This document shows, piece after piece, positions 10,967 to 49,605 of a stretch of 64,000 bases of DNA (the stretch's first letter is position 1; every line of letters starts with the position of its first letter). The position numbers were made by a program, and so were the translations under genes. The notes beneath the pieces were generated by a model. It was given only the letters and a program-made list of their open reading frames with translations, made no database searches and was not told the origin of the DNA. The DNA is from an uncultured Pseudoflavonifractor sp. (GTDB lineage Bacteria; Bacillota; Clostridia; Oscillospirales; Oscillospiraceae): assembly GCA_964504285.1 (NCBI GenBank), contig CAZDDZ010000005.1, positions 1,084-65,083 on the forward strand, in the 5' to 3' direction.

Positions 10967-10981
10967 TTTTATTTTGATATT

Positions 10982-21579: not shown

Positions 21580-21612
21580 GGGATATTTCCTCCATTCTCG
21601 TATCTTTGAAAC

Positions 21613-21776
21613 TAGAGCGTATCTGAAAAGTATCAAAACGCCCATAAACTTGTCTTTTCCTGCCATGGCAGCGCCAATTTTCCTTGCCATACGTCAGTAT
21701 GGCTGCAAAAAATCGGCTTGCCTGACACAAAAATCCTGCGCTTCTGTGCATTCCGCTACTTTTCAGATACGCTCTA
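21613..21776. mobile_element. Family-B MITE-like repeat, intact copy (164 bp, perfect 20-bp TIR, TA-flanked)
   Basis: The left end tagagcgtatctgaaaagta equals the reverse complement of the right end tacttttcagatacgctcta. There is an internal hairpin gccatac-gtca-gtatggc. Confidence 0.85.
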
Positions 21777-22028
21777 AGTAAAGGATATGGAATGAAGGGA
21801 GATTCTATACAAAAGAGTGGGAACATGGTATAATAATTATTGCGCAATTATGAGGTGCGCATGTGGCACGAAGAGCTTGGGCGCCGGTACTTCAGCCGTT
21901 GACTGTAATGGCTGGGTGGAAGATGATTCCATAAATGAAATTTACACAATTGCAGCGGCAGGTCGGTGTGATGGCATAAGCCGCGGCGTGCTTTATGGCA
22001 ATATCAAAAATTCAAAGGAGCGAATCCT

Positions 22029-22334
22029 ATGGCGGAACTGTTTTTGCCCGTCCTATCTCATTTTCAAAACAAAAATGTGTGGCTGGCCAGTGATGGCCGG
22101 CTGCGCTTTCAAATTACACCGGGAGAGGGGCTTGCGGCAGAAATATGGGAAGGCCCCTGGTGCTATGAGCTCTCCCGGGTGGAGGAGACCAATACCTTCC
22201 CTATGGACGAGGAGGGAATTATTGCCCTCCGTGCCTGGCTGGGCCAGAAAGCCGCCGAAGTAAATGCCCGCCCCAAGCGTAGTATGAGCGAAAATTTGGA
22301 GCGACGGGTAGAACCGGCGGCAAAGGAAGCATAA
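22029..22334 (+). CDS. Hypothetical protein (101 aa)
   Basis: AAAGGAG RBS 8 nt upstream of the ATG; the ORF ends directly at a strong terminator. No recognisable motif. Confidence 0.55.
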   Translation: MAELFLPVLSHFQNKNVWLASDGRLRFQITPGEGLAAEIWEGPWCYELSRVEETNTFPMDEEGIIALRAWLGQKAAEVNARPKRSMSENLERRVEPAAKEA

Positions 22335-23704: not shown

Positions 23705-23749
23705 CAAAAAATATGGTATAATAGCCGTCCGGCGGCTATTATACCATAT
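23705..23749 (-). terminator. Intrinsic terminator hairpin whose arms are palindromic TGGTATAAT motifs
   Basis: atatggtataatagccg-tccgg-cggctattataccatat forms a 17-bp stem, with a U-run on the minus strand. Confidence 0.65.
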
Positions 23750-24431: not shown

Positions 24432-24589
24432 AAAAATACCTCCCTTGTTAATGAGAACTGTTCCTAATAATAGAATAGCACAATTTGTCACATTGTCAAG
24501 TCTTTTCCAAAAAGTAAAGAAAGCATGTGCCGTGTTATTGCACCTTGGACACCGTTCCCTACGGAGGCCTGGAAGCAATGTATTGTTCC

Positions 24590-24626
24590 TTAATAAATCA
24601 AGAGGCGGAGCATTTGCTCCGCCTCT
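24590..24626 (-). terminator. Intrinsic terminator of the lipoprotein gene
   Basis: agaggcggagc-attt-gctccgcctct, followed by U-rich sequence on the minus strand. Confidence 0.65.
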
Positions 24627-24640
24627 CTGCAATTTGCTAT

Positions 24641-25720
24641 TTAACCGGCAGCCTTGGCGATAAGGGTCTGGAGACTGCTGATACCGATGGTGACCGAGGA
24701 GGCCACATCGGGGTCGGCGGGGCCGCCCTTATCGTTAAGTGCCATACCGGTAATTTCGCTCACGGTCTTGCCGGTGGCATAGGCCGAGAAGGCAGCGGCC
24801 TGCTCGTTCCACTCCTTGCCAATGGCGGAAGCCTTCTTCATGCCGTACTCGTCGCCCAGCTGGTTCTTGGAGGGGACGGCGGCGGTCAGGTCGCTGGTAA
24901 TCACGCCGCTGGCGTTAAAGTTTACGTTGGCCTGCACGGAGTCAATGTAGCAGCTGGTCACGGTATCACCCTGCAAAGTCACGGCGGCAAAGTAGGTATA
25001 GGCCTGAGCCAGACCGTCCTTTTCGGCGGTAGCATCCTTGCTCTTCTTCATGTTGGCGTCGCTGGTGAGAGCCAGCTTGTCGCCCTTCTGTGCCCCCAGA
25101 TGAGTGGCGTTGTTAACGGCTTCCTGAATACCGGCCAGGTAGCCGCCCACGCTGATGGTCACAGAGGAAACCAAATCCGCGTCGGTGGGAGCTCCCTTTT
25201 CATTGACGGGAAGACCCATGAGCTCATCCACCGTCTTGCCCACGGCATACTCGGCCAGAGCGGCGGCCTGCTCGTTCCACTCCTTGCCGATGGGAGAGGC
25301 CTTCTTCATGCCGTACTCGTCACCCAGCTCATTCTTGGTGGGGAACTGGGTAGCGGGGTCGGTGGTCAGCTTTCCGGTGGCGTCAAAGCTAATCTTAGAC
25401 TCAAAAATGTCGATGACACAGGAGTCAATCACGCCGTTGTCGTCCACGGTGACGGCAACCAGAGTCATTTCGCTCTTGGCTACGCCGTCCTTGTCAGCGG
25501 AAGCGTCCTTGCTGTCTGCCACGCTGGCGGAGATGGACAGGCCGGTCTTTACGGCAGTGGTGTCGGAAGGAGTGGCAGAGGGGGTAACGGAAGGCGTGAC
25601 AGAGGGAGTCGTGGAAGGAGTGGCCGAAGGGGTAGCTGTGGGAGAGCCCGCGCAGCCGGCCAGCAGACCGGCAGCCAGGGTCAGAGAGAGCGCGGCAAGA
25701 GAGAGTTTCTTTACGTTCAT
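24641..25720 (-). CDS. Lipoprotein with S/T/P-rich linker and two tandem FMN_bind-like repeats
   Basis: Lipobox LLAGC and linker PTATPSATPSTTPSVTPSVTPSATPS. The two repeats share NELGDEYGMKKAS.IGKEWNEQAAA and D..SSVTI. Start moved to ATG 25720. Confidence 0.75.
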   Translation of the reverse strand: MNVKKLSLAALSLTLAAGLLAGCAGSPTATPSATPSTTPSVTPSVTPSATPSDTTAVKTGLSISASVADSKDASADKDGVAKSEMTLVAVTVDDNGVIDSCVIDIFESKISFDATGKLTTDPATQFPTKNELGDEYGMKKASPIGKEWNEQAAALAEYAVGKTVDELMGLPVNEKGAPTDADLVSSVTISVGGYLAGIQEAVNNATHLGAQKGDKLALTSDANMKKSKDATAEKDGLAQAYTYFAAVTLQGDTVTSCYIDSVQANVNFNASGVITSDLTAAVPSKNQLGDEYGMKKASAIGKEWNEQAAAFSAYATGKTVSEITGMALNDKGGPADPDVASSVTIGISSLQTLIAKAAG

Positions 25721-25802
25721 GGTGCGTACCTCCATTTAAGTTTGTTATAACTATAACAGAGGTACCTTAATGGCAAATGAATGGCATCTAAATAATTGTT
25801 AA

Positions 25803-27741: not shown

Positions 27742-27784
27742 CGAACCCGCCTCCCCTTGTCAAGCGCAGATTTTTTTTGTATAC

Positions 27785-27946
27785 TAGAGCGTATCTGAAC
27801 AGTCTCAAAACGCTCATAAACTTGTCTTTTGCCGTCATGTTGCGCCAATTTTCCTTGCCATACGTCAGTATGGCTGCAAAAAATGGGCTTGCCTAACAAA
27901 AAATTCTGCGGTTCTGTGCATTCCGCTACTTTTCAGATACGCTCTA
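27785..27946. mobile_element. Family-B MITE-like repeat, intact copy between divergent kinase and regulator genes
   Basis: The element runs from tagagcgtatctgaacagtc to tacttttcagatacgctcta and is TA-flanked. Confidence 0.85.
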
Positions 27947-28015
27947 CTTTTATTTATTTTTATTTATATAAGGGTATCATAATAAAAATCTTCTGTAAAG
28001 AAAGGCGTGTGGCTG

Positions 28016-28699
28016 ATGGCCGATACCGTGCTCATTGTGGACGACGACCGGGCTGTCCTCACCATGCTGTGCAAGGTGGTGCGCAGCAACGGCATTGAGG
28101 CCGTTACCGCCAACAGCGGGGAGCAGGCGCTGGCCCTGATGGACGAGGGCAAATACGACCTGATCATTATGGATGTGAATATGCACGGCATGGATGGCTT
28201 TCAGGCTGTGCAGGCCATTCGAGGCAAGGGAATCAAGACCCCCATCATCATTGTCAGCGGGCGGAAAGAGGACTACGACACCATCTACGGTCTGGACATC
28301 GGTGCGGACGACTATATTACCAAGCCGTTTAACCCGGTGACCTTGGGGGCAAAGGTCAAGGCGCTTATCCGCCGCAGCCGCGACCAGCTGCCCGGAGCCG
28401 ACAGCACCATTGCCGCAGGCCCTTTTCAGTATAACACAAGCACTCTGCGTTTTTACAAGGACGGAACAGAAATTTCCCTTTCCTCCAAAGAAAATGCCAT
28501 GATGAAGCTTTTTATAGACAATGTAAACCGTATTTTTTCCAAGGATATGCTCTATGACCTCATCTGGGGCGAGGCTATTATTGACGAAAACGCCATCATG
28601 GTGTACGTTAACCGGCTTCGTCAAAAAATTGAGGAGGATCCCGCCAAGCCCCATTATATCCAGACAGTACGGGGATTGGGGTATCGATTTGTGGTATAA
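28016..28699 (+). CDS. OmpR-family response regulator
   Basis: VLIVDDD, DLIIMDVNMHGMDG and C-terminal YIQTVRGLGYRF. ATG 28016 is preferred over GTG 28007. Confidence 0.9.
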   Translation: MADTVLIVDDDRAVLTMLCKVVRSNGIEAVTANSGEQALALMDEGKYDLIIMDVNMHGMDGFQAVQAIRGKGIKTPIIIVSGRKEDYDTIYGLDIGADDYITKPFNPVTLGAKVKALIRRSRDQLPGADSTIAAGPFQYNTSTLRFYKDGTEISLSSKENAMMKLFIDNVNRIFSKDMLYDLIWGEAIIDENAIMVYVNRLRQKIEEDPAKPHYIQTVRGLGYRFVV

Positions 28700-28797
28700 T
28701 AACCGCAGCGCAGTTATTATACGCGCATGTGGACACTTGGTGTCCACGCGCTGGGATTTTAGCCCCGGCGCGGGACGTGCCGGTGGCATATTATACC
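28693..28797 (+). repeat. Family-C modular three-hairpin repeat, copy C1
   Basis: ggtataataac..gttattat acgcgcat gtggacac-ttg-gtgtccac gcgctgggattttagcc ccggcgc-gggac-gtgccgg tggcatattatacc. The regulator stop codon TAA (28697-28699) lies inside it. Confidence 0.75.
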
Positions 28798-28812
28798 GCA
28801 ACCTGCGGTTGT

Positions 28813-28917
28813 GGTATAATAACCGCGTTGTGGTTATTATACGCGCATGTGGACACTCGGTGTCCACGCGCTGGGATTTTAGCCCCGGCACGGGACGCGC
28901 CGAGGGCAGGTTATGTC
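28813..28917 (+). repeat. Family-C repeat, copy C2 (tandem to C1)
   Basis: Same module order as C1, with point differences. Confidence 0.75.
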
Positions 28918-28954
28918 ACAAATAAAATTTGTCATATAACAGAATATTAAAACA

Positions 28955-28993
28955 GAGCTGCCGCGTTAGTTCGCGGCAGCTCCGTTTTTTGTT
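28955..28993. terminator. Bidirectional intrinsic terminator
   Basis: gagctgccgcg-ttagtt-cgcggcagctc followed by cgttttttgtttt, and A-rich on the other side. It lies 10 nt downstream of the stop of the large surface-protein gene. Confidence 0.8.
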
Positions 28994-29002
28994 TTGCCGA
29001 AA

Positions 29003-32000
29003 TTACTTTACCAGCAGGGTAATCATGCGCTCCATAAGGGCGGCAACCTCGCCACGGGTGGCGGAGGCTGCGGGATCAAGACGCTGACCGCCCTTGCCGG
29101 TAAGCAGACCTGCGGATACGGCCCAGGTCATGCCGTCCTTGGCCCAGTCGGATACCAGACCGCCATCGGAGAAATCGGTCAAGGGGGTGCTGTTCACGGC
29201 AGTGTCCAGCCCCGCAGCCTTGGCGTAACGGTACAGGAAGGCGGCAAGCTGCTCTCGGGTCACACTGACGTCGGGGGCAAAGCCACCTGCTGAGCCGGTA
29301 ACGATACCTTGCTCGCCTGCCCAGGACACGGCGTCTGCGTACCAGGCGTCGGCGGGAATGTCGGTAAAGTCGGTGCCGGTTGCCGCCGGGCTGTTTTCCA
29401 GCCGGTGGAGAACAGTTACCAGCATGGCGCGGGACATATATTCCTCTGCGTCAAAGCGGTCCGCGCTGCTGCCCTGGAACAGCCCATGGCTGGCCGCGAA
29501 GCCAACTGCACCGGCTGCCCAATGGGTGGCGGGCACATCGGAAAATACGGCCAAACGGTTGACTGCCGTCACAGTAGCCGAGCCGCCCAGCAGGGCATAG
29601 GTCACGCCGTCGGACACCAGGGACTTGGGCAATACGGTCAGAGTACCGTCCGCCTCCACCAGTGCGGCAACCAGGGTGGGGGAAACATTGCTGCGAGCCA
29701 AAGGCGTTTTTAGGGTATCGGGCACGGGAATGGCGACCTTTAAGCCACCGCTGAGCTGATTAACAGCCTTACCGTCGGCGGCTACCGTAATGGCCACAGA
29801 GCCATCCACCCCGCGGTCAGCCGTGAGGGTGACCGTTTTGCCACCCTCTTGCGCCAGGGCGGCAAGACCAGCGGCATTCAGGGTAAGTGCGCCCACAGGA
29901 GTATCCATGGTCAGGCGCAGGCCGCTTTCCTTGGAAAGGGCGGAAATGGAGCTGCTGGGCAGCGCCACCGAGACCTTAGAAACGTCGCCCTTAATTTTGG
30001 GGGCGATGACCAGCTCGGTGGCTGTGTTCTTCTGGATGGCTTTCAATGCTTTATCCGTGTCCGCATTGGAGATGGTGACAGTGGCCGTGCCGTTTGTTAC
30101 CGTGGCAGTGGGGGTAAGCGTTTCAGTTTTTTCACCGGAAGGGGTTTCGGGTTTGGTGTCGGTAATTTTGTCGTTGTCCGGATACTTACCGGCGTTGGCC
30201 CCTAAATCATTTCCCAGATTTAACGTGTAGCGCCAAGTGATAACGTCACCGTTTTTGAGGGGATAGGCGTTACAACCAACGTCGGGATAGCTGCCGTTGA
30301 CCGCGTACATCCAGCCGCTGCCGCTGCCGTGGTCGAATTCTCCGTCTCCGTCAATAGAGCTAATATAGACACTGCCGTATTTCCCGCTGAAGGAAAACTT
30401 GTAAGCAATACTTTTTTCATCCAGAATCCGCTTAGTCACATCCCACGCGCTGTCTCCTTCTTTCAGGACAACCTGAACATCTTTTACCACATAGCCCCCG
30501 CCGATAGTGAGCTTATCGATGGAGAGGGTGACAGTTTCCTTTTCGGTTGGGGTGGGCGGAACGATGGTACCGCCGTTATCTACGGTAAAGGTAATCGCAG
30601 GCATTTCGCCCTGGTAGTGCTTATTGGTTACTTCCATGGGGCGATTTTGGATAACAGCAAAATAATTTTCCCTCACATAACCGTCTGTCAGGGTAAAGGT
30701 TCCGCTAATATCCTTGGGAACCACAAAGGACAAGGTTCTCAAATCTTCCTTTTTGTCCTTGCAGTCTTCCGTTTGCACCGTGGTCATATTGGGAATGTTA
30801 CTGCTGTAAACCAGCTTGAGGGAGGTGGTGCTCTGATTGCCCAACGCAACGAGCAGATTGGGGAAGTTAATGGTCACCTTAATACCCTCGGTCACCTTTT
30901 CCTGTGTGACCGTGTGCTGAAAGGTGGTAAGGTCGGCGACAGCCTTGTTGTAGGCTTTTATAGCTCCGTCCAGCGCGGTAACGGCCTCCTCTGCCTCCAA
31001 CCCCGTAAGCCCATCCTTTGTTAGGGTTTGATTGGCTTTGGAAATGGCTTCCTTTAGTACATTCCACGCGGTTTCGGCGCCATCCACCTCGACCACTGTC
31101 ATAGCTTCGGCAATTTTATCGGTTAAGGCCTTTTTCTGCGCATCGTTTACCGGTCTTTCTACAATGGTCACGGCACAGGTTGCGGTTTTACCGCCATCCA
31201 CAGTGGTGGCAGTTAGTGTAACAGGAGTTTGGGTAACCGCCTGCGCTGACAGGGTTCCGGAATTTAAATTTAAAGTAAACTGATCAGAGGAACTCCAGGA
31301 ATAGTTTTGATTTGTTGCCTCCGCGGGATACACAGTAGCCCCCAGCTTGCTGCCCAGTTCCGAGATTTGGAATTTGTCGCCTCTGTAAAGGGTCAGCGTT
31401 TTGGTGGTTAGCTCAATGCGCTCTACTTTGACGGCGGCTGATGTCTCTGCCACGTCAATTTTAAAATTAGGAAGGGTAGAGAATTCACCATCGTGAGTAT
31501 CACTCATGCCTGCATTGGAACCGCCCACCGCGGAGTTGGTTTTGTCACTGCCCAGCGCGCTGCCCCACCATTGGGAGAAGATTTTTCCGTTTGTAAACTC
31601 ATAAGAGCCGGCATCGGGAAATGTCATGGTAATTGCGTTTTTCGTTGCTAAGTCCCACTGGGTGGAGACACCCTCCAGCTTGCCGCCCAGGGCGGCGTTG
31701 GTGTAGTGAGCATAGGTGCCGTGGGTGCTCCAAGAGGGATTCCCCTGGTTTATATATTTCCAAGTGGGATTGTAAATGGTGGCCAGCTTATAGACGGGAG
31801 GAGTAATGCCCTTGAAGCTGACTTCGGCGGTGTCTCCCTTGGCAAGGGGAAGCCCGGGGAAGCTCACGTTTTTTATATTTAATTCAATTTTTCTGGCGTC
31901 GACCACTTGATAAAAACTTTTGGCTTCACCGGCGGTATCGGTAGCGACCACACCAATAATGTTGGAGCGGTTTTCTAAAGGAGCAAGGTAAGAACCATCT

Positions 32001-33661
32001 GATTCAGGGGTAAGAGTGCTCCCGTTGCAGGTGACCAAAAGACTTTTTGCCCCATCGGCGGTTACGGTAAAAGGAAGATTTACGCTGTTACCTTCATGAA
32101 AATAGATGGTGTCGTAGCTGCGCTGGGCAATGCTTGTGGTGGGGGTAATGCTGCCCTTTTCACCCACAGAGAACACCGCGTATGCAGTGTTTACCGAGGA
32201 GGAGGCGCCAAAAGTTTTCCCTTCGTAAACCAACTCGTCATAGGTGACCTTTACTATGGTGGTACCGGCCTTAACTGCGGTAACGGTAACCTTATCCTTG
32301 CTTTTAGGGGTGTCCAAGGTGATGCTGCTGCCGCCGATAATTTCAAAGTTAAAGTCGGGACGCTGCACATTGTTATTGGTGTAGTCGGTCACAATCTGGG
32401 GCACGCGGCGGGGAAAAATAGTGGCGGTATCTCCGATGGACAGGGACTTAAAATCGTATTGAAGCCAAAGGTCGTTTTGCCAGTCGTCGGGAACAGAGGA
32501 GGGGACAACGGGTGGAGTTAGCTTTTCCTCTACGGTAATGGTGCACCAAGGAGAGATAATGGGGGTTGCACCATCTCCGCTGGTGAAGGCACTGACCACA
32601 TAGGTGCCCGCCACGTCAAAGGAGATGGACGCAAGACCGTCTCCGTCTGTGATGGTCAAGGGAGTTGCAGAGATGCTATTGTTTTCTATCAGAGCAATTT
32701 TTGCACTAGGAACGGGCATATTGACGCGGTTGGGCTTTTGCGCGGTCATGAGAGAATAGCTGTTCAGTGTGAGCGCAATAGGATCTCCCACATAAGCCGT
32801 GATGCTGCTGACGGATGCGCCGTCCTGCTCGAACCAAGCATACAGGTCGGAAAAAAAGGAGTCTTCTTTATTGAAAAAGAACTGCACAAAGCTACCATCG
32901 GTGACCACGGCTTCGTTTATGAGCTTGCCGGTATATTCGCCATAAGTTGGGTTCACTACGCCATCGTTGGGTTGCTCACCATCTACGGCAAAACCGAAGC
33001 CGCTTGTGGTGGGCAGACCAAACGCCTTGGAAACCCAGCCGGAGGAGGTAACTGCCAGATACGTGTTCATCTCGTCCTTGGCTGTTGTGTCAAACAGATC
33101 CTCATGCAGTTTGACCAGCACATCCAGGGCGGTTATATCGTCAGCGCCAACCTCTGCACCGTAGGTATAGCCGTAGGATGCGGCAAGTCCTGCCGTGACA
33201 GAAATTTTTTGCCGTGGCACAAGGAAGGTGTCTGCTTGCTGTGCGCAGGAAATAATGGTTGCCTGTTTGTGGGTGAAAACTTCGGGAGCCACCGCTTCGG
33301 CAAAATAAATATGTGCACTAATTGCATTTAAACCACTCGCAACAATACAATAGCAACCATTTGGTATAATTGAAAAATCTTCTGTGGCTTTTGCTTCGGA
33401 CCAGGCTGACATAATATAGTTGCCCTGGAGACCTTGGACGGCTACACTGCCACCCATTTTTTCTTCGGGCACCTGAATCACATACTTGGGGACATCCTTA
33501 TTATTGTCCGTGCAAGACTCTAAACCCTCTTGTAAAACGGTTAGTTCTTGCCCATCTATTGTTGCGGTAAAGGGCACTGTGCTCTCTGCCAATGCGCCCA
33601 TAGGCACCAGCCCCAGAGTTAGCACCAGAGTCAGGAGCAGAGATAAAATGCGTTTTTTCAT
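29003..33661 (-). CDS. Large cell-surface protein: signal peptide, DUF4430 (transcobalamin beta-domain-like) module(s), Big_2 Ig-like domain, three C-terminal SLH domains
   Basis: Start moved to ATG 33661 (GAGGAGG RBS, MKKRILSLLLTLVLTLGLVPMGALA). DUF4430-like segment: GGGYVVKDVQVVLKEGDSAWDVT...YGSVYISSIDGDGEFDHGSGSGWMYAVNGSYPDVGCNAYPLKNGDVITWRY (about 30200-30540). SLH repeats: FSDVPATHWAAGAV, FTDIPADAWYADAVSWA, FSDGGLVSDWAKDGMTWA. Confidence 0.9.
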   Translation of the reverse strand: MKKRILSLLLTLVLTLGLVPMGALAESTVPFTATIDGQELTVLQEGLESCTDNNKDVPKYVIQVPEEKMGGSVAVQGLQGNYIMSAWSEAKATEDFSIIPNGCYCIVASGLNAISAHIYFAEAVAPEVFTHKQATIISCAQQADTFLVPRQKISVTAGLAASYGYTYGAEVGADDITALDVLVKLHEDLFDTTAKDEMNTYLAVTSSGWVSKAFGLPTTSGFGFAVDGEQPNDGVVNPTYGEYTGKLINEAVVTDGSFVQFFFNKEDSFFSDLYAWFEQDGASVSSITAYVGDPIALTLNSYSLMTAQKPNRVNMPVPSAKIALIENNSISATPLTITDGDGLASISFDVAGTYVVSAFTSGDGATPIISPWCTITVEEKLTPPVVPSSVPDDWQNDLWLQYDFKSLSIGDTATIFPRRVPQIVTDYTNNNVQRPDFNFEIIGGSSITLDTPKSKDKVTVTAVKAGTTIVKVTYDELVYEGKTFGASSSVNTAYAVFSVGEKGSITPTTSIAQRSYDTIYFHEGNSVNLPFTVTADGAKSLLVTCNGSTLTPESDGSYLAPLENRSNIIGVVATDTAGEAKSFYQVVDARKIELNIKNVSFPGLPLAKGDTAEVSFKGITPPVYKLATIYNPTWKYINQGNPSWSTHGTYAHYTNAALGGKLEGVSTQWDLATKNAITMTFPDAGSYEFTNGKIFSQWWGSALGSDKTNSAVGGSNAGMSDTHDGEFSTLPNFKIDVAETSAAVKVERIELTTKTLTLYRGDKFQISELGSKLGATVYPAEATNQNYSWSSSDQFTLNLNSGTLSAQAVTQTPVTLTATTVDGGKTATCAVTIVERPVNDAQKKALTDKIAEAMTVVEVDGAETAWNVLKEAISKANQTLTKDGLTGLEAEEAVTALDGAIKAYNKAVADLTTFQHTVTQEKVTEGIKVTINFPNLLVALGNQSTTSLKLVYSSNIPNMTTVQTEDCKDKKEDLRTLSFVVPKDISGTFTLTDGYVRENYFAVIQNRPMEVTNKHYQGEMPAITFTVDNGGTIVPPTPTEKETVTLSIDKLTIGGGYVVKDVQVVLKEGDSAWDVTKRILDEKSIAYKFSFSGKYGSVYISSIDGDGEFDHGSGSGWMYAVNGSYPDVGCNAYPLKNGDVITWRYTLNLGNDLGANAGKYPDNDKITDTKPETPSGEKTETLTPTATVTNGTATVTISNADTDKALKAIQKNTATELVIAPKIKGDVSKVSVALPSSSISALSKESGLRLTMDTPVGALTLNAAGLAALAQEGGKTVTLTADRGVDGSVAITVAADGKAVNQLSGGLKVAIPVPDTLKTPLARSNVSPTLVAALVEADGTLTVLPKSLVSDGVTYALLGGSATVTAVNRLAVFSDVPATHWAAGAVGFAASHGLFQGSSADRFDAEEYMSRAMLVTVLHRLENSPAATGTDFTDIPADAWYADAVSWAGEQGIVTGSAGGFAPDVSVTREQLAAFLYRYAKAAGLDTAVNSTPLTDFSDGGLVSDWAKDGMTWAVSAGLLTGKGGQRLDPAASATRGEVAALMERMITLLVK

Positions 33662-33691
33662 ATGACTTCCTCCTCGCTTTTTCAGAAAAAC

Positions 33692-33726
33692 AAAAAAACT
33701 GTGGCAATCCATTTGGATTGCCACAG
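33692..33726 (-). terminator. Intrinsic terminator forming the riboswitch expression platform
   Basis: On the minus strand, ctgtggcaatcc-aaat-ggattgccacag is followed by TTTTTTT, 30 nt upstream of the RBS. Confidence 0.8.
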
Positions 33727-33785
33727 CCGTTTTTCTGTGCCTAAATTGCCCCCTCCGCGTGCCCATACCCCGGGCAGGAGGGTGC

Positions 33786-33980
33786 CCCTTTCGTAGGTCT
33801 TCTGACTTGCGCTTATGGAGCCTGTTTCCAAGCTCCTGCGTACACACACAGCCTTCCCAGGTTGCCCCAGTGACCGACTTTCGTCGCGCGTGTGTCCTCA
33901 GCGTATACAGCGGCGGATACCGTTCGGGATTTTCACCCGATTCCCTTGTTCATCCCCCGTGCCAAACGCGACAGGAGCCA
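33786..33980 (-). promoter_or_regulatory. Cobalamin (B12) riboswitch
   Basis: The minus strand contains AACAAGGGAATCGGGTGAAAATCCCGAACGGTATCCGCCGCTGTA (33906-33950), GTCACTGGGGCAACCTGGGAAGGC (33851-33874) and the B12-box-like AAGTCAGAAGACCTAC (33793-33808), in the order expected for the cobalamin riboswitch consensus. Confidence 0.85.
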
Positions 33981-34007
33981 CAAAAGAGCTATGTAATTGT
34001 ATCTACT

Positions 34008-34147: not shown

Positions 34148-34345
34148 ATGATGATTCATCTGACGCAGATGCTGGCGCGCTTTACTTATAAAATTGACGT
34201 TGAGGTGCGGCGGGTAGTTCAAAGGTACCCGTGGTCCGCGTTTTTGATAATGCTAATTGGTGTGCCCATCTTTCTTGTGGCGGCAGTCACCTTCGCCACA
34301 GGAGTAATTATGCTGCCCGTATCGCTGCTGCTAGGTTGGCGTTAG
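34148..34345 (+). CDS. Small hypothetical membrane protein (65 aa)
   Basis: AGGGGG RBS and one long hydrophobic segment, SAFLIMLIGVPIFLVAAVTFATGVIMLPVSLLLG. Confidence 0.5.
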   Translation: MMIHLTQMLARFTYKIDVEVRRVVQRYPWSAFLIMLIGVPIFLVAAVTFATGVIMLPVSLLLGWR

Positions 34346-34409
34346 CAGTTTCTTAATGCAATCTTAACGCTGAAAGTTTATCTCTAATATAGTATTAAAA
34401 AAGCGGTAT

Positions 34410-34512
34410 GGTATAATAACTGCAATGCAGTTATTATACGCGCATTTCGGCACGAAGTGCCGAAGCGCTGGGATTTTAGCCAGCGGCCGGGACGGCCGCG
34501 TGGCATATTATA
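34410..34512 (+). repeat. Family-C repeat, copy C3
   Basis: Same flanks and loops as C1/C2, but hairpin 2 is ttcggcac-gaa-gtgccgaa and hairpin 3 is gcggcc-gggac-ggccgc (compensatory stems). Confidence 0.75.
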
Positions 34513-34529
34513 TTATGAATAGAATTCAT

Positions 34530-34585
34530 GATATAATAACTGCAATGCAGTTATTATACGCGTATTTCGGCACGAAGTGCGCCAG
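34530..34585 (+). repeat. Family-C repeat, truncated copy C4, immediately upstream of kdpD
   Basis: gatataataactgcaatgcagttattatacgcgtatttcggcacgaagtgcgcc; contains TGATATAAT at 34529-34537. Confidence 0.7.
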
Positions 34586-34613
34586 TAAAAAATCGGTATT
34601 GGGAGGGGCTCTT

Positions 34614-37307
34614 TTGGAAAAACCGCGCTGTGACCCAGATGAAATGCTTCGCAGGGTAAAGAAGGAGCTGGAGGAACGAAAGCGGGGCCATCTAAAAATA
34701 TTTTTTGGCTATGCCGCCGGGGTAGGGAAAACCTACGCTATGCTTAAGGCTGCCCATGGAGCGGCTCATCGCGGCGTTGATGTGGTGGTGGGTTATGTAG
34801 AGCCCCACGACCGCCCCCGGACAGCCCAGCTGCTCAGCGGGCTGGAGGCAATCCCGGCTAAACGGGTGACCCACGGGGGCATAGTGCTGCATGAGTTTGA
34901 CCTGGACAGGGCGCTGGAGCGAAAGCCCCAGCTCCTTCTGGTGGATGAGCTGGCTCACACCAATGGAGACGGGTGCCGCCACCGCAAGCGTCACCAGGAT
35001 ATTGCCGAACTGCTAAACGCCGGAATTAGCGTCTACACAACGGTAAATGTTCAGCATATTGAGAGCCTGAACGACATGGTGACCGCAATTACGGGGGTAA
35101 CCGTCCGGGAGCGGATTCCCGACCATGTGTTTGACCGTGCCGACCAGGTAGAGCTGGTGGATATTGAGCCCGAGGAGCTGATGGAGCGGCTTGGCAAGGG
35201 TGAGGTTTACGGAAAGACTCAGGCAGAAAAGGCGCTGGGTAATTTCTTTACCTCCCAAAATCTGACCGCATTGCGGGAGCTGGCCCTCCGCCGCTGCGCC
35301 GACCGAGTTAACCGGATGGTGGAGGCCGGGCGGGACAGCATGAGCGGCGGCTATTACACCGACGAGCACATCCTGGTTTGTCTCTCGTCTTCCCCCACCA
35401 ACGCAAAAATCATCCGTACCGCGGCGAGAATGGCCAGCGCCTTTCGGGGAAGCTTTACCGCCCTGTTTGTAGAGACCCCTGCCTTTGTTACCATGAGCGA
35501 GGAGAACCGGAGCCGCCTACGCCAGAATATCCACCTTGCCGGGCAGCTTGGGGCCTCGGTAGAGACGGTCTGCGGGGACGACATTGCCTTCCAGATTTCC
35601 GAATTCGCCAGGCTTTCCGGCGTGTCTAAAATTGTTTTGGGCCGCAGCAGCGCAAAGCGAAAATTATGGCCGGGTACACCCACGCTAACTGAAAAAATTA
35701 CAGCACTTTCTCCCAATCTGGATATTTACATTATTCCGGAAAAGGACACGCCGCCGTATAGGGCGAAGCAGGGGGCTGTCAGCACGCCCAATACCGTGTG
35801 GCAGGATATTTTTAAGAGTGCGCTGGCACTTGCTGCCGCCAGTTTGGTTGGTCTGCTGTTTTACCGCTTTGGATTTAGCGAGGCCAATATTATTACAGCC
35901 TATATCCTAGGTGTGCTGGTTACTGCCATTAGTACCTCACGGCGAATATACAGCCTTGTCTCCTCGGCGGTAAGCGTGCTGACCTTTAACTTTCTGTTTA
36001 CAGACCCTCGCTTTTCGTTTAACGCCTACGACGCCAGCTATCCGGCGACCTTTTTATTTATGTTTATTGCCGCGTTTCTTACCAGCACCGTGGCGGTGCG
36101 CCTGAAACAGCAGGCCCGCCAGTCGGCTGAGACCGCCTACCGCACCAAAATTCTGTTTGATACAAACCAGCTTATCAGCAATGAACGGGACACGGGCGGC
36201 ATCATTGCCGTAACCTGCAAGCAGCTATCCAGACTACTGGGCAAGGATATTCTGTTCTACGGCGTGCAGGACGACAGGCTGACAGACCCGCTCTTTTTCT
36301 CGGTAGGGGAGAGCCCCCAGCCCGGTCGCTATCAATCGGAGCATGAAAAGACGGTGGCGACCTGGGTCTACCACAACAATAAGCACGCCGGAGCAACCAC
36401 CAATACCCTGGGGAATGCAGGCTGCCTCTATCTCTCCGTTCGAGTAGGGCAGGAGGTTTACGGCGTGGTGGGTGTGGCGGTGGAGGGGACTGCCCTGGAC
36501 GCAATGGAGAACAGCGTTATGCTCTCCATTCTGGGGGAATGCGCCCTGGCGCTGAAAAACGAGGCGATGTCCCGTCAACGGGAGGAAGCCGCGCTCCTTG
36601 CAAAAAATGAGCAGCTGCGGGCAAATCTGCTCCGCTCTATTTCCCACGATTTGCGTACTCCGCTGACCACCATCTCCGGCAACGCCGGTATTTTACTGGA
36701 AAGCGAGGGCAGCTTAGACGCAGAAAAGCGCCGGGGCCTTTACACCAGCATTTACGACGATGCGCTGTGGCTAATTAACCTAGTGGAAAATCTGCTGTCG
36801 GTAACTCGCATTGAGGATAATTCCATGAAGCTGCGCACCACCACCGAGCTGATGGATGAGGTAATTGCCGAAGCTATGCGCCATATCAGTCGGAAAAGTA
36901 TCGAGCACAGTATTACGGTAAAGCCTTCCGACGGGTTTGCCCTGGTGAAAATGGATGCGCGGCTAATGATGCAGGTGGTCATTAATCTGGTGGACAATGC
37001 CATTAAATATACCCCCCAGGGCTCTGCCATTACCATTGAAACCAGGCAGGAGGGGGGCAAGGTGATGGTATCGGTCTCCGATGACGGTCCCGGCATTTCA
37101 GACGAGTCTAAAAAGCGAATTTTTGATATGTTCTACACCGCCAATGCCACGGTTGCCGACAGCCGCCGCAGCTTGGGTCTAGGGCTTGCCCTGTGCAAGT
37201 CTATTGTGACGGCCCACGGCGGTGAGCTTACAGTGAGCGACCGGGTGCCCAGAGGCACGGTCTTTACCTTTACATTGCCCGCCGAGGAGGTATGCCTGCA
37301 TGAATAA
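34614..37307 (+). CDS. kdpD: Sensor histidine kinase KdpD (KdpD N-terminal domain, Usp, TM block, GAF, HisKA/HATPase)
   Basis: FFGYAAGVGKTYAML P-loop and H-box SHDLRTPLT. The proposed start is TTG 34614 (GGGAGGGG RBS) or ATG 34644. The ORF-track start at 34425 runs through the repeats. Confidence 0.9.
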   Translation: MEKPRCDPDEMLRRVKKELEERKRGHLKIFFGYAAGVGKTYAMLKAAHGAAHRGVDVVVGYVEPHDRPRTAQLLSGLEAIPAKRVTHGGIVLHEFDLDRALERKPQLLLVDELAHTNGDGCRHRKRHQDIAELLNAGISVYTTVNVQHIESLNDMVTAITGVTVRERIPDHVFDRADQVELVDIEPEELMERLGKGEVYGKTQAEKALGNFFTSQNLTALRELALRRCADRVNRMVEAGRDSMSGGYYTDEHILVCLSSSPTNAKIIRTAARMASAFRGSFTALFVETPAFVTMSEENRSRLRQNIHLAGQLGASVETVCGDDIAFQISEFARLSGVSKIVLGRSSAKRKLWPGTPTLTEKITALSPNLDIYIIPEKDTPPYRAKQGAVSTPNTVWQDIFKSALALAAASLVGLLFYRFGFSEANIITAYILGVLVTAISTSRRIYSLVSSAVSVLTFNFLFTDPRFSFNAYDASYPATFLFMFIAAFLTSTVAVRLKQQARQSAETAYRTKILFDTNQLISNERDTGGIIAVTCKQLSRLLGKDILFYGVQDDRLTDPLFFSVGESPQPGRYQSEHEKTVATWVYHNNKHAGATTNTLGNAGCLYLSVRVGQEVYGVVGVAVEGTALDAMENSVMLSILGECALALKNEAMSRQREEAALLAKNEQLRANLLRSISHDLRTPLTTISGNAGILLESEGSLDAEKRRGLYTSIYDDALWLINLVENLLSVTRIEDNSMKLRTTTELMDEVIAEAMRHISRKSIEHSITVKPSDGFALVKMDARLMMQVVINLVDNAIKYTPQGSAITIETRQEGGKVMVSVSDDGPGISDESKKRIFDMFYTANATVADSRRSLGLGLALCKSIVTAHGGELTVSDRVPRGTVFTFTLPAEEVCLHE

Positions 37308-37998
37308 ACCGCTGATTTTGGTTGTGGAGGATGACGACGCTATCCGCAACCTGATTACCACTACATTAGAAACCCATGATTACCGTTTTTTAACCGCACC
37401 CACAGGAGCGGCCGCCATTTTAGAGGCCGTATCCCATAACCCGGAGGTCGTGCTTTTGGACCTGGGTCTGCCCGATATGGACGGAGTGGAGGTCATTAAG
37501 AAAATTCGCAGCTGGTCGAAAGTACCCATTATTGTCATCAGCGCCAGGAGCGAGGATACCGATAAAATTGATGCGCTGGACGCAGGGGCTGATGACTACC
37601 TTACCAAGCCCTTTTCGGTGGAAGAGCTGCTGGCCCGGCTGCGGGTGACCTTTCGGCGGCTAAACGACGCGCTGTCCGGAGAACAGCCCCAGGGAGCCGC
37701 CTTTACCAATGGTGACCTGACCATCGATTACGCCGCCGGATGCGCCTACCTGGAAAACCAAGAGTTGCACCTGACCCCCATTGAATATAAGCTTCTATGC
37801 CTGCTGGCTAAAAATGCGGGCAAGGTGCTGACCCATACCTACATAACGCGTGAAATCTGGGGCAGCTCCTGGGATAACGACGTGGGCTCCCTGCGGGTGT
37901 TTATGGCAACGCTCCGCAAAAAAATAGAGACAGGGGCCAACCCGTCCCAATATATTCAAACGCACATCGGGGTGGGGTATCGGATGCTGAAGATATAA
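37300..37998 (+). CDS. kdpE: OmpR-family response regulator KdpE
   Basis: ILVVEDD, VLLDLGLPDMDG and IQTHIGVGYRM; 8-nt overlap with kdpD. Confidence 0.9.
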   Translation: MNKPLILVVEDDDAIRNLITTTLETHDYRFLTAPTGAAAILEAVSHNPEVVLLDLGLPDMDGVEVIKKIRSWSKVPIIVISARSEDTDKIDALDAGADDYLTKPFSVEELLARLRVTFRRLNDALSGEQPQGAAFTNGDLTIDYAAGCAYLENQELHLTPIEYKLLCLLAKNAGKVLTHTYITREIWGSSWDNDVGSLRVFMATLRKKIETGANPSQYIQTHIGVGYRMLKI

Positions 37999-38129: not shown

Positions 38130-38765
38130 TTAGAGAATGCCCAATTCCCGGGCGATGTCCAAATTTACCAGAAGTACATTGACATGAGCTTCACTGAAGA
38201 TACCCAGCAGCTTTCCCTGTGTGTGGTTTTGTATGATCTCCTCTAAGCGGGCTTGACTCAGGCCGGTACTTTGCACCAGCCGAGGGATTTGAATGGCTGC
38301 GGAGTCAGGGGAAATGTGGGGATCCAGGCCAGAGCCGGAGGCGGTGAGCAAGTCTGTGGGAATATCCTCGCGGCGCACCTGGGGATTTGCAGCCAGAAAG
38401 GCGGCCATGTCAGCGGTTACCCGCTGAATTAGAGCGGGGTTAGTAGGGGCATAGTTCTGAGAACCTGAGGCAGGGCCGGTGTAGTCGCCCGCCTCCTTTT
38501 CTGCCTCGGTATAGGTGTTGTACCCCACTGCGGAGGGGCGGCCCCATAGAAAGCGGGGGTCTGTGAACTGCTGCCCTACCAGGGTGCTACCCACGGCTAC
38601 GCCGTCCACTTCGATGACACTGCCCTTTGCCTGATGGGGAAAGAAAACCATAGAAAGCCCGGTAAGGGCCAGAGGGTAGAAAAGCCCGCAGAGCACCATA
38701 AGCACCAGCGTAACCAGTCCGGCTTTTTTTATGCTGCCCAGAGCGGATTTAAGTTTTGTGTGCAC
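38130..38765 (-). CDS. kdpC: K+-transporting ATPase subunit C
   Basis: Single N-terminal TM, LLTASGSGLDPHISP motif, and position after kdpB. Confidence 0.9.
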   Translation of the reverse strand: MHTKLKSALGSIKKAGLVTLVLMVLCGLFYPLALTGLSMVFFPHQAKGSVIEVDGVAVGSTLVGQQFTDPRFLWGRPSAVGYNTYTEAEKEAGDYTGPASGSQNYAPTNPALIQRVTADMAAFLAANPQVRREDIPTDLLTASGSGLDPHISPDSAAIQIPRLVQSTGLSQARLEEIIQNHTQGKLLGIFSEAHVNVLLVNLDIARELGIL

Positions 38766-38778
38766 GATAAATTCCTCC

Positions 38779-40830
38779 TTACAGACCCAGCAGCATCAAA
38801 AGGGGATGAATGGCCAGGTCAATGAGCTTGATGCCGAGAAAGGGTGTTATAACCCCGCCAAGGCCGTAAATGAGCAGGTTGCGGCGCAGAAGCTTGCTGC
38901 TGCTCATGGGACGGTACTTAACCCCCCGCATGGCCAGCGGAATCAGGCAGGGGATAATAATAGCGTTAAAGACCAGGGCCGAGAGAATGGCGCTTAAGGG
39001 GGTGGCCAGGGACATGATGTTAAGCACCCCCAGCTGGGGAATGACCAGCATAAACATAGCCGGAATAATGGCAAAGTATTTGGCAATGTCGTTAGCAATG
39101 CTGAAGGTAGTCAGACTGCCCCGGGTAATGAGCAGCTGCTTGCCAATTTCCACTACCTCCAAAATTTTGGTGGGGTCCGAGTCCAAATCCACCATGTTGG
39201 CGGCTTCCTTGGCGGCGGCGGTGCCGCTGTTCATGGCAAGACCCACGTTGGCCTGCGCCAGGGCGGGGGCATCGTTGGTGCCGTCTCCGGTCATGGCGAC
39301 GATTTTACCCAGGGCCTGTGCTTCGCGGATGACGCGGATTTTATCCTCAGGCTTGCACTCGGCAATAAATTCATCCACCCCTGCTTCCCCCGCAATGGTA
39401 GCGGCGGTCAGAGGATTATCGCCGGTGCACATGACGGTTTTAATGCCGATGGCCCGCAGACGGTCAAACCGCTCCTTCATACCGGCCTTTACCGTGTCCT
39501 TCAGGTAAATAACGCCCAGCACCCTAGCTCCTTCGCACACAGTCAGCGGGGTGCCGCCCAGGGAGGAAACCCGACTGACCACCGATTCTAAATCAGCGGG
39601 AATGGACCCGCCCATAGCCTTAACATAGCCGGCAATGGCCTGATCCGAGCCCTTGCGGATGCTGGTGCCGTCGGGCAGGTCGACGCCGCTCATGCTGGTT
39701 TGGGCGGTAAACTCCACGAAGGAAGCGCCCGCCGGAGCCTGAACGGTGCACCCCCTTTTACGGCCCAGCTGAACGGTGGATTTGCCCTCGGGAGTACCGT
39801 CCGAGAGAGAGGAGAGTACCGCGCAGCGGACAAGGGCTTCCTGACTGCAAGCGCCAACGGGGTAGAAATCGGTGGCCAGCCGATTGCCGTAGGTAATGGT
39901 GCCGGTCTTATCTAAGATCATAGTGTCCACATCGCCACAGGCCTCTACCGCCTTGCCCGACATAGCGATGACGTTAAACCGCGTGACCCGGTCCATGCCC
40001 GCAATTCCGATGGCGGAGAGAAGACCGCCGATGGTGGTGGGAATCAGGCAGACGGTCAGGGCGATGAGAGTGGAAACGGGCAGTACCACGCCGCTATATA
40101 GAGCGATGGGGTAAAGCGTGACGATAACAATGAGAAAAATAATGGTCAGGCTGACCAAAAGGGTACTCAGAGCAATTTCATTCGGGGTTTTTTGCCGGGA
40201 GGCACCCTCTACCATAGCAATCATACGGTCGAGAAAGCTCTCGCCCGGGGCAGAGGTCACACGAACCTTTAACCAGTCGCTGATTACGGTGGTGCCGCCG
40301 GTTACCGAGCTGAAGTCGCCGCCGCTCTCACGGACCACCGGGGCCGATTCGCCGGTAATGGCCGATTCATCCACCGAGGCCACGCCCTCCACGACCTCAC
40401 CGTCGTTGGGAATCAGCTCTCCCGCCATTACCAGCACCAGGTCGCCCTTTTGAAGGTCGTGAGAGCTGACAAATTCCTCCTCGCCATTGGAAAGAATGCG
40501 TCGGGCACGGGTATCCTTCTGAGTTTTTTTAAGACTTGCGGCCTGGGCTTTTCCGCGCCCTTCGGCCACCGCTTCGGCAAAGTTTGCAAAGAGCAGGGTC
40601 AGCAACAGGATAAAGGACACCATGCAATTGTAAGGCCGCAGAGCTTCACTGCTCTCGCTTCCGAACAGACCGGGAAACAGGGAGAGGAGCACGGTGATGA
40701 AAAAGCCAACTTCGACAACGAACATAACGGGATTTTTCATCATCAGGCGGGGATTAAGCTTGGTAAACGCGCCACGGATGGCACCTTTTAAAATTTCTGG
40801 TGTTACGAGCTTCTTTTTTGGCTGCGTCAT
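38779..40830 (-). CDS. kdpB: K+-transporting P-type ATPase subunit B
   Basis: DKTGTIT phosphorylation motif and [13 protein letters not shown]. Confidence 0.95.
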
Positions 40831-40843
40831 GATTAAATACCTC

Positions 40844-42577: not shown

Positions 42578-42589
42578 GCAAAATCCTCC

Positions 42590-42753
42590 TAGAGCGTTTC
42601 TGAAAAGTAGCGGAATGCACAGAAACGCAAAATTTTTTTGCCAGGCAAGCCAATTTTTTGCAGCCATACTGACGTATGGCAAGGAAAATTGGCGCTGCCC
42701 TGACGAAAAAAGACAAGTTTATGGGCGTTTTGATACTTTTCAGAAACGCTCTA
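42590..42753. mobile_element. Family-B MITE-like repeat inserted between kdpF and kdpA
   Basis: The element runs from tagagcgtttctgaaaagta to tacttttcagaaacgctcta with a perfect 20-bp TIR. It is in reverse orientation relative to the copy at 21613. Confidence 0.85.
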
Positions 42754-42828
42754 AAACTTCTCCGGGTGAATAAGCGCATAAAAGAGATAAGCGCTTATGA
42801 GCAAAAGCAAAATAATTAGCAGCGGCAT
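42751..42828 (-). CDS. kdpF: K+-transporting ATPase subunit F (25 aa)
   Basis: Translation MPLLIILLLLISAYLFYALIHPEKF, with the YL.YAL..PE.F ending typical of KdpF. It has a GAGGA RBS. It is not in the ORF track because it is under 60 aa. Its TAG stop is formed with the repeat terminus. Confidence 0.75.
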   Translation of the reverse strand: MPLLIILLLLISAYLFYALIHPEKF

Positions 42829-49590: not shown

Positions 49591-49605
49591 AGAATCACCT
49601 ATTTC

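Follow-up and report, generated by a model that had tools for sequence, protein, structure and literature searches.

The stretch of DNA analyzed here, 64,000 nucleotides of a contig (CAZDDZ010000005.1) from an uncultured Pseudoflavonifractor sp. and hereafter called the window, is ordinary chromosome carrying glycogen genes, kdp, ABC transporters, two-component systems, and GH3 glycosidases. It also holds a small structured repeat, designated family C, which is present at 5 window sites; array 1 starts within the end of a gene for an OmpR-type response regulator, and array 2 occupies the region upstream of kdpD (Table 1). With roughly even confidence, we read family C as a non-coding, non-autonomous, lineage-restricted modular mobile repeat seated at TG-extended -10 promoter boxes; it does not look like a gene for a known RNA.

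Anatomy of the family C repeat

Full units occupy positions 28693-28797, 28813-28917, and 34410-34512, each comprising hairpins 1 to 3 (hp1 to hp3), and a fourth helix (hp4) connects the 3' end of a unit to the start of the next. An earlier note on this DNA, made from the letters alone, had listed these three units along with a truncated one at 34530-34585 and a copy cut by the window end, all of which were found again. The degenerate relative that it placed at about 21826-21880 also exists, but extends over the full length of a unit (21824-21933; 25.8 bits), approximately 100 nt upstream of the co-oriented open reading frame (ORF) 22029-22334. The first ~21 nt of the copy at the window end (63980-64000) read GGTATGATAATAACTGCAAGA, with a 2-nt insertion. 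An independent repeat search without a preset pattern returned the same families and a fifth hp1 at 23712. Within the window, the 17-mer GCGCTGGGATTTTAGCC has 3 exact matches (0.17 expected), the hp1 pattern GGTATAATA-N10-30-TATTATAC has 5 (0.00 expected), and TGGTATAATA at no more than 1 mismatch has 11 (2.2 expected), with 6 of the 6 exact TGGTATAATA matches lying inside family C members. The motifs are far above chance, which is excluded as their source.

The 5' boundary of family C is a TG-extended -10 box (TRTGGTATAAT), GGTATAAT being the consensus extended -10. Intact units all begin with TGTGGTATAAT, TATGGTATAAT, or CATGATATAAT, which conform to TRTGnTATAAT, the TG-extended -10 consensus of Firmicutes. 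Since the first ~20 nt after the hexamer consist of the reverse complement of the box (the "anti-box") and a variable inner stem, hp1 is the box paired with its anti-box. Oriented copies are all co-directional with the flanking genes; the palindrome at 23711-23749, located between divergent genes, presents the full box TRTGnTATAAT on both strands.

Covariation was assessed on an alignment of 4 full units, namely the three from the window and one from locus L005 of a second host organism, a wastewater Pseudoflavonifractor sp. metagenome-assembled genome (MAG) to which locus L015 also belongs. The alignment is gap-free within the units, with a gap only in the last two columns, which are flank. 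Hp1 is a 13-bp helix; the 8 bp of hp2 are extended by GCGC/GCGC beyond an AT bulge, and the 7 bp of hp3 by GCC/GGC beyond a T bulge. Over these three hairpins, 96.4% of the cells are paired and 9 of the 35 pairs have changed on both sides; none of 500 shuffles reached this level, and slid controls were 24-45% paired. Across 8 copies, hp1 is 97.1% paired. The 15-bp hp4 combines the 3' end of a unit (TATTATACC) and a 15-nt palindromic spacer of 6-3-6 layout with the next GGTATAATA. In its 4 examples, the spacers are GCAACC/GGTTGT, ACAAAT/ATTTGT, and, twice, ATGAAT/ATTCAT (with different loops); 96.7% of the cells are paired, 7 of the 15 pairs have changed on both sides, and 0 of 500 shuffles were as good. 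A fifth spacer, AAAAAC-TCT-GTTTTT, was found in metagenome contigs, in the loose end of another genomic copy. The hp4 of unit 1 overlaps the hp1 of unit 2, so the two helices are mutually exclusive.

Compensation extends to the boxes themselves. A three-way compensation occurs in L015, where GGTATCATA stands as the second box and TATGATA is found in both sequences that pair with it, namely the 3' end before it and the hp1 arm after it. The terminal box of array 1, CATATAACA, has lost the -10 consensus; its partner GGTTATGTC has changed too, and hp4 is intact. Pairing has thus been kept even at the cost of the -10 consensus. Other genomic copies add compensatory pairs: 28733 A>G co-occurs with 28743 T>C in hp2, 34446 T>G/A with 34464 A>C/T, and 34448 C>G with 34462 G>C.

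The module order and the stem sequences quoted in the earlier note are as it described them, and the figures above bear out its claim that the stems stay complementary through two-sided changes while loops and linkers are fixed. Its statement that the stems "differ completely" between loci was too strong, because the differences are limited to 3 of the 8 pairs in hp2 and 4 of the 6-7 in hp3, and the end of the unit, which it paired with the unit's own start, pairs best with the start of the next unit. It had overlooked hp4, the palindrome at 23711-23749, a 14-bp direct repeat at array 2, and the identity of GGTATAAT as an extended -10.

Folded with DNA parameters, the complete element (box, cassette, next box) forms four consecutive hairpins, with z-scores from -5.9 to -9.9. 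As RNA, its + and - strands fold about equally well; the + strand has 9 G.T pairs against 4 A.C mismatches, a bias that is not significant, and strand assignment from wobble pairs was dropped for that reason. The bases joining hp2 and hp3, ACGCGCAT and GATTTTAGCC, and the GGGAC loop are unpaired and invariant; in the linker TGGGATTTTA, GATTTTA is invariant and the copies differ at the second and third bases. The outer half-sites of hp1, GTATAATA and TATTATAC, are likewise invariant, with a constant 13 nt between them and centers 21 bp apart. Several candidate functions suggested by these motifs were dropped: a conserved micro-ORF (the linker ATG is absent from unit 3 and L005), a GGA sponge of the CsrA type (the first GGA varies, being TGTGATT in L015 and showing G>A/T variants in other copies), a dif/Xer site (the loose likeness to GGTGCGCATAA is outweighed by the multiple copies and the missing XerD arm), a Fur/PerR box (similar half-sites, spaced by 13 nt instead of 1), and a rolling-circle nick site (too weak an AT-rich resemblance).

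Table 1. Coordinates of family C copies, their parts, and other features in the window
Feature	Position	Strand	Remark
Box 1, TGGTATAAT, with TG before it (TGTGGTATAAT)	28692-28700	+	TG-extended -10 consensus
TAA stop codon of OmpR-type response-regulator gene (28007-28699)	28697-28699		Inside box 1
Unit 1, hp1	28694-28722	+	Box x anti-box, 13 bp, 3-nt loop
Unit 1, hp2	28723-28751	+	GCGC-(AT bulge)-GTGGACAC / GTGTCCAC-GCGC, 12 bp
Unit 1, linker	28752-28761	+	TGGGATTTTA, unpaired, conserved
Unit 1, hp3	28762-28787	+	GCC-CCGGCGC-[GGGAC loop]-GTGCCGG-T-GGC
Unit 1, hp4	28789-28821	+	3' anti-box TATTATACC + spacer GCAACC-TGC-GGTTGT + box 2 GGTATAATA, 15 bp
Unit 2	28813-28917	+	Own hp1, hp2, and hp3; 87% identical to unit 1
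Unit 2, hp4	28909-28941	+	GGTTATGTC + ACAAAT-AAA-ATTTGT + CATATAACA
Intrinsic terminator	28955-28992	both	Bidirectional; common to convergent SLH-protein gene; outside repeat
14-bp direct repeat, left copy	34396-34409	+	TAAAAAAGCGGTAT; flanks array 2
Unit 3, box	34407-34417	+	TATGGTATAAT
Unit 3	34410-34512	+	hp1 34411-34439, hp2 34440-34468, hp3 34479-34504
Unit 3, hp4	34506-34538	+	TATTATATT + ATGAAT-AGA-ATTCAT + GATATAATA; C-G to T-A compensated
Truncated unit	34530-34585	+	Box TGATATAAT, hp1, left half of hp2
14-bp direct repeat, right copy	34586-34599	+	TAAAAAATCGGTAT
hp1-only perfect palindrome	23711-23749	no strand	39 nt, ATATGGTATAATAGCCG-TCCGG-CGGCTATTATACCATAT
Decayed full-length copy	21824-21933	+	Stems mostly broken; covariance model 25.8 bits, E 1e-5
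Start of another copy	63975-64000	+	TTGTGGGTATGATAATAACTGCAAGA; cut by window end
MITE (miniature inverted-repeat transposable element), one orientation	10805-10975, 21611-21781, 27783-27951		Unrelated to family C
MITE, opposite orientation	42588-42757, 49604-49773		Unrelated to family C
MITE, partial	52814-52863		Unrelated to family C

Distribution and the selA insertion

Scanned with Rfam 15 at the gathering threshold, the window yielded a cobalamin riboswitch only (33775-34000, - strand; 72.7 bits) and no match to family C. An E-value scan of 28650-29000 gave weak matches far below threshold only, mostly on the neighboring terminator, the loci L001-L006 gave one tRNA only, and ARAGORN found 0 tRNA or tmRNA genes in the window; a match to a described Rfam family, which the earlier note had named as grounds for refutation, did not turn up. 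The riboswitch overlaps the annotated start of, and lies upstream of, ORF 29003-33847, encoding a 1614-residue SLH/DUF4430 protein, and its position suggests that this large surface protein is under B12 control.

Among genome representatives (one per species), the exact pattern of the 3' signature had 0 matches and the hp1 pattern had 6, of which only L005 carries the full family. The L005 copy is 83.5% identical over 109 nt, with a different hp2 stem; outside the repeat, L005 and the window show no similarity except distant ABC-transporter matches. That the gut and wastewater lineages share ~83% identity in the repeat, though their neighboring loci are dissimilar, points to strong constraint or horizontal spread. 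Exact-pattern scans of the JGI metagenomes gave 0 matches, and BLAST searches against plasmids and phages found no family C match; 2 pattern matches in IMG/VR, both in membrane-protein coding sequence, were rejected as chance. A word-index search with spurious ORFs translated from the repeat found nothing, and the same search with full HMMER produced one unrelated repetitive pseudo-protein of 2202 residues, which was rejected. In ~90 kb from the nearest relatives of the window organism (KdpD 72-73% identical), there is neither a copy nor a palindrome of the hp1 type.

Copy number was estimated by placing metagenome contigs on the loci and comparing depth with that of the flanks. In 3 gut metagenomes and 4 bioreactor, wastewater, or fuel-cell metagenomes, the element region reaches a depth 5-25x that of its flanks, over many contigs. 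In the gut metagenomes, the window organism is present at ~5-12x, the cassette at 40-210x, and hp1 at 175-295x, and the excess is spread over many contigs at about the organism's own depth, with unrelated flanks; one hp1-bearing contig, at a depth of ~80, probably belongs to another organism. We estimate 6-15 cassettes and 15-25 hp1 palindromes for the window organism, and about 5-7 copies for the L015 organism in the other four metagenomes. Logan assemblies of three further runs break inside the element. On the strength of this repeat depth and of the second organism, family C is not confined to the window loci, a point on which the earlier note had staked its claim. A separate depth spike at 28300-28340 (to 325x vs 12x in the gut metagenomes) lies in the receiver domain of the response regulator and is unrelated to the repeat, since many organisms share this short conserved stretch.

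One copy lies in L015, between a divergent Fe-hydrogenase gene and selA. Here, 205 nt (7881-8085) are inserted directly 3' of the box of the native selA promoter: to the left, the sequence is homologous up to 7880, including TGTGGTATAAT, and homology resumes at CTTACAAAATCCGCTCACGGGAGG (8086). We compared the orthologous selA intergenic regions of L022 (SelA 83%), L019-L021 (79%), L023/L024 (72%), and L025 (70%), representing four related lineages, and the element is absent from the selA upstream regions of all of them. The empty sites read TTTTTTTATGGTATAAT to the left of the insertion spot and CCTTATAAAATCTGCTCACGGGAGG..ATG to its right, with TATGCTATACT in two outgroups; that is, the relatives keep TATGGTATAAT or TATGCTATACT where the element is inserted in L015. 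Since the empty sites already have the extended -10 box, the box is older than the element. The 9-mer TGGTATAAT is rare, with ~2 unrelated sites in ~150 kb of loci not chosen by pattern, so insertion beside it is a non-trivial coincidence. The pre-existing box shifts the interpretation toward a mobile cassette that nests at promoters.

The L015 insertion opens with one family C cassette, continues with a second box and its hp1 and a "module X" of 63 nt, and closes with a degenerate box-like CATGATAT. Module X (TTCCCCTTGCGCCGCTTTTCTCACCCGCTTGCGCGGGCAACCGAAAAACCTGG; L015 8023-8074) is a second cassette type, a hairpin with a T-run upstream and an A-run downstream, which is the reverse of a terminator layout. 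Loose ends of other copies show it after the anti-box in the L015 organism, and a diverged form of it in the window organism; in both organisms, module X can take the place of the usual sequence after hp1 or after the 3' anti-box. Because module X recurs after the anti-box, the family is a mosaic of exchangeable modules set between boxes.

In the same region of L015, a 72-residue phage-integrase fragment (5592-5810) lies near a tRNA gene (L005 4283-4356), and L020 has a full integrase and phage genes at the corresponding place. This tRNA region, some 2 kb away from the selA promoter, has the appearance of a variable hotspot for integration.

Two further clostridial MAGs contain repeats that bear a partial resemblance. 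In Roseburia sp. MAG JBJEJC01 (L003 658-840 and L006 1560-1679), a different modular repeat has nothing in common with family C except the hairpin of box and anti-box, ATGGTATAATATGCGC-AGA-GCGCATATTATAC, and a palindromic spacer (ATGTGC-GAA-GCACAT) ahead of each box; in L003, its array closes with a solo TGGTATAAT located ~45 nt upstream of the start of a gene. Cassettes of box plus anti-box may be wider in Clostridia. In a Lachnospiraceae MAG (L002 480-640, - strand), an hp1-like palindrome and a tandem leader repeat of ~70 nt (GATATTATAYGCGCCCATAT...CTTATYACGG..GATTAYRGCCTAATA), with no Rfam match, come after a canonical promoter, TTGCAA-17-TATAAT, upstream of a gene.

A proposed mobile cassette at promoter boxes and its rivals

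Both the presence or absence of the element at an orthologous site and its dispersal in copies with unrelated flanks are observed, as expected of a mobile element. Its unit is a cassette of ~112 nt that lies directly 3' of a TGGTATAAT box and ends in a second anti-box and a half-palindrome pairing with the next box. A box therefore flanks each cassette on both sides, which accounts for the exact 120-bp period, by which arrays grow, and for their ends, always partial units with at least a box. We propose spread of the cassette in single-stranded form, with an enzyme encoded elsewhere in the genome recognizing its hairpins and constant unpaired bases; the helices and invariant unpaired bases are features that such a structure-reading enzyme would need. 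The cassette would land at, or recombine with, TGGTATAAT boxes, and the box would be regenerated on its 3' side, duplicating the promoter box. Expression of the downstream gene would continue, either from the new box or by way of a long structured leader. As the cassette has no convincing terminator and the box is regenerated, insertion into promoters would be tolerable. The reading thus explains the fixed left boundary, the 120-bp period, the solo or partial array ends, the co-orientation with genes, and the tolerance of insertion.

Array 2 illustrates what such an insertion may do. Its last box, TGATATAAT, ends 77 nt before the TTG start of kdpD (34614), a start confirmed by the database protein P0001. 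The kdpDE genes (34614-37998, + strand) are convergent with kdpCBA (38130-42682, - strand); in the nearest relatives (L009 and L011), kdpFABC-kdpDE lie on one strand, with kdpD after kdpC in one operon. For this Oscillospiraceae-like gut bacterium, the nearest KdpD in the database is only 72-73% identical, and that of Fumia xinanensis 70%. Given that kdpDE is split from, and convergent with, kdpCBA, the family C repeat is the obvious source of a kdpDE promoter; array 2, and its last box in particular, is the likely, putative one, and kdpDE would be driven through the array in the manner outlined above. The 14-bp direct repeat brackets the insertion 34410-34585 with one mismatch (score 11.5 vs a maximum of 9.5 in 500 shuffles).

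Several points weigh against the mobile-cassette reading. Neither the genes of the 64-kb window nor those of the L015 contig include a transposase or recombinase, and there is no consistent target-site duplication, with no clear repeat at array 1, 23711, or L015. The selA locus provides one empty-site comparison, and its right junction is unclean, containing the degenerate CATGATAT and the 63-nt module X. No good, canonical -35 precedes the boxes, whose promoter activity is predicted from sequence. Tandem units of the same locus are more alike than units elsewhere, so arrays may grow by local duplication rather than repeated insertion. Finally, part of the covariation may reflect something other than selection, because fold-back synthesis or intrastrand repair can create perfect palindromes and keep them symmetrical.

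A bolder version of the same reading, which we regard as a long shot, makes the cassette a promoter-homing single-stranded DNA element: the anti-box would act as a guide pairing with a target -10 box that is single-stranded during replication or in the open complex, integration would occur 3' of that box, and a box would be left on both sides. It would be akin to the guide-target pairing of IS200/IS605 or to the bridge RNAs of IS110, but aimed at promoters.

The main rival of the mobile cassette is an RNA function, which we judge unlikely: family C would be a family of structured RNA genes or 5' leaders, transcribed from their own TGGTATAAT box and selected in the host for stability control, protein binding, or cis regulation. 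Every unit starts at a perfect extended -10 box, and with the usual 6-8 nt from -10 to +1, the predicted transcription start site would lie in the hp1 loop. The predicted permuted RNA, running 122-124 nt from the hp1 loop to the next box, folds like a cloverleaf into a closed four-way junction (P1, hp2, hp3, and hp4; z-scores -6.0 and -7.6), and arrays always reach far enough to supply the 3' strand of hp4/P1. The intrinsic terminator at 28955-28992, the sole convincing one in the array 1 region, would stop any transcript begun in array 1. Inside the arrays there is no convincing terminator: a T-run follows hp1-hp4 in no copy, and a 9-pair match to the terminator consensus at 28804-28827, in the stretch of hp4 and box 2 (4 G-C pairs, weak TTGTGGTTAT tail), is not above shuffles (3 found vs 0.9 expected in the array 1 region). 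Near array 2, the only terminator site is at 34327-34349, upstream of the array. Against the RNA reading, the downstream genes are unrelated (kdpDE, selA, or none), the unit is an insertion missing from the selA leaders of close relatives, one copy is decaying (21824-21933), and the hp1 of a first unit covaries yet cannot be part of an RNA begun at its own box; these points lead us to disfavor it. The modules are, moreover, exchangeable, no Rfam family matches, and the + strand excess of G.T over A.C is not significant. Transcript evidence amounts to one 151-nt RNA-seq contig with a copy from the L015 organism, at a depth of 2.8 and possibly DNA carry-over; no RNA run turned up for the window organism.

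With respect to the earlier note, its contention that a selected RNA or single-stranded DNA structure is at work, and not decay, is supported as regards the compensatory stems; the 9-to-4 wobble count and the folding of both strands favor neither strand clearly, and the copy at 21824-21933 is plainly decaying. Its terminator-module suggestion is not supported, as there is no T-run after any helix.

A second rival, also raised by the earlier note, takes family C for a mosaic of the REP/BIME type, in which a RAYT (TnpA-REP, a Y1 HUH enzyme) from a single-copy gene would bind the palindromes and move them. Short intergenic palindromes with compensatory stems, conserved unpaired bases beside hairpins, mosaics with other motifs, tandem arrays, and multiple copies would all fit. 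REPs are G+C-rich palindromes of 20-40 bp with a GTAG or CGTC tag at one end, a tag described in PMC3733652 as sorting most of them into two superfamilies, and no GTAG or CGTC tag stands at the foot of hp1-hp4 in any copy of family C. The outer stems are A+T-rich and identical to the promoter box, the copy number is low for REPs, and neither the window ORFs nor the L015 genes include a RAYT. We regard this origin as improbable.

The weakest rival, very improbable in our view, operates on double-stranded DNA, with palindromes over the -10 serving as operators of dimeric regulators or as cruciform, supercoiling-sensitive promoter modules spread as "mobile promoters" by duplication or recombination of promoter regions: the invariant half-sites GTATAATA and TATTATAC with 13 nt between them and centers two helical turns apart, the symmetrical palindrome between divergent genes (23711-23749), and the known reuse of promoter sequences upstream of unrelated genes (PMC3575422) speak for it, but a reader of the outer half-sites leaves the two-sided changes in the inner 13 nt, hp2, hp3, and the hp4 spacers unexplained, the terminal hp4 of array 1 is still paired after loss of the box consensus, and no candidate regulator is linked to the copies.

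Relation to known elements and wider meaning

By analogy, the elements closest to family C are Correia elements, BIME/REPIN mosaics, BOX elements, and "putative mobile promoters"; an IS200/IS605-like logic would be the nearest mechanistic parallel. Correia elements (CREE/NEMIS) of Neisseria are non-coding, transposon-like intergenic repeats of ~100-150 bp, whose ends carry or create -10 boxes, act as promoters for neighboring genes, and pair into a transcript hairpin; their terminal inverted repeats measure 26 bp and their target duplication is TA. They are not known to have internal covarying G+C hairpins or tandem 120-bp arrays. Family C is similarly a small non-coding intergenic repeat carrying -10 boxes, but its "inverted repeat" is only 9 bp long and is the promoter box itself, pre-existing at the empty site. 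Correia elements have been cited as promoter-bearing mobile elements (PMC3575422). The putative mobile promoters of the same work (Matus-Garcia, Nijveen and van Passel 2012; PMC3575422) are highly similar non-coding sequences upstream of unrelated genes, some across distant taxa, and form a descriptive class recognized by BLAST similarity. Family C goes beyond that class in that its anatomy, its structure conservation, and one insertion site are defined. With REP, BIME, and REPIN sequences, it shares palindromic compensated units, mosaics and tandem clusters, an intergenic location, and multiple copies; unlike them, it has no GTAG/CGTC tag, its A+T-rich outer stems are the -10 box, and its copies are far fewer.

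BOX elements of Streptococcus pneumoniae are modular structured repeats (boxA-boxB(n)-boxC, with modules repeated or missing) that sit in 5' or 3' untranslated regions and influence the expression of neighbors. Family C resembles them as a modular structured repeat in a Firmicute, but has no sequence similarity to them and consists of four discrete hairpins with a fixed 120-bp period, and BOX elements are not known to be tied to promoter boxes. IS200/IS605 elements and their miniature derivatives (PATEs) insert 3' of a fixed short sequence, which for that reason always flanks their left end and can be mistaken for a piece of the element; they have subterminal hairpins and element-target pairing, and need no terminal inverted repeats. 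The target, of 4-5 nt, is read by a few base pairs with a guide beside a hairpin. Like a PATE, family C has hairpins and a fixed left-flank sequence that pairs with the element; unlike the IS200/IS605 family, it engages a 9-nt box in a full 13-bp helix and has no TnpA or TnpB nearby, and a 14-bp direct repeat such as that of array 2 would be unexpected among IS200/IS605 elements. In integrons, the attC recombination site flanks each cassette and works as a folded single strand whose shape is conserved over its stem sequence. Family C matches integron cassettes in its tandem arrays and in the site flanking each cassette, but lacks the conserved R'/R'' core (RYYYAAC / GTTRRRY) of attC; where the window copies have AAC...GTT, L015 and the palindrome at 23711 have AGC...GCT. 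No integrase or attI occurs near the family C copies in the window, and the cassettes carry no ORF.

A classical MITE is defined by terminal inverted repeats of at least 10-15 bp and a fixed-length short target-site duplication, and of such features family C has only the 9-bp box/anti-box inverted repeat and, at array 2 alone, the 14-bp direct repeat. The window contains an unrelated second repeat family that is a classical MITE, ~170 bp long, with terminal inverted repeats of ~20 bp (CTAGAGCGTATCTGAAAAGTA ... TACTTTTCAGATACGCTCTA) and an internal hairpin, GCCATACGTCAGTATGGC. Its copies lie in intergenic DNA (Table 1), one of them 40 nt upstream of the decayed family C copy and another (42588-42757) at the 5' end of kdpA. 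The window also includes a direct repeat of 248 nt, 72% identical (24686-24933 / 25154-25401), within ORF 24527-25750, which has no Pfam match; this is probably an internal protein repeat.

Family C carries a general caution: covarying intergenic hairpins need not be RNA genes, as DNA elements acting through a single strand give the same signature. The site choice and the tolerance of small structured bacterial repeats are mostly unexplained, and family C, an element complementary to a pre-existing promoter box at its left boundary that regenerates this box, offers a testable link to promoter capture and duplication. In the window organism, it probably supplies the kdpDE promoter after separation of these genes from kdpABC. 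If promoter homing as single-stranded DNA were true, family C would represent a new class of miniature elements that rewires transcription while sparing the gene behind its landing site.

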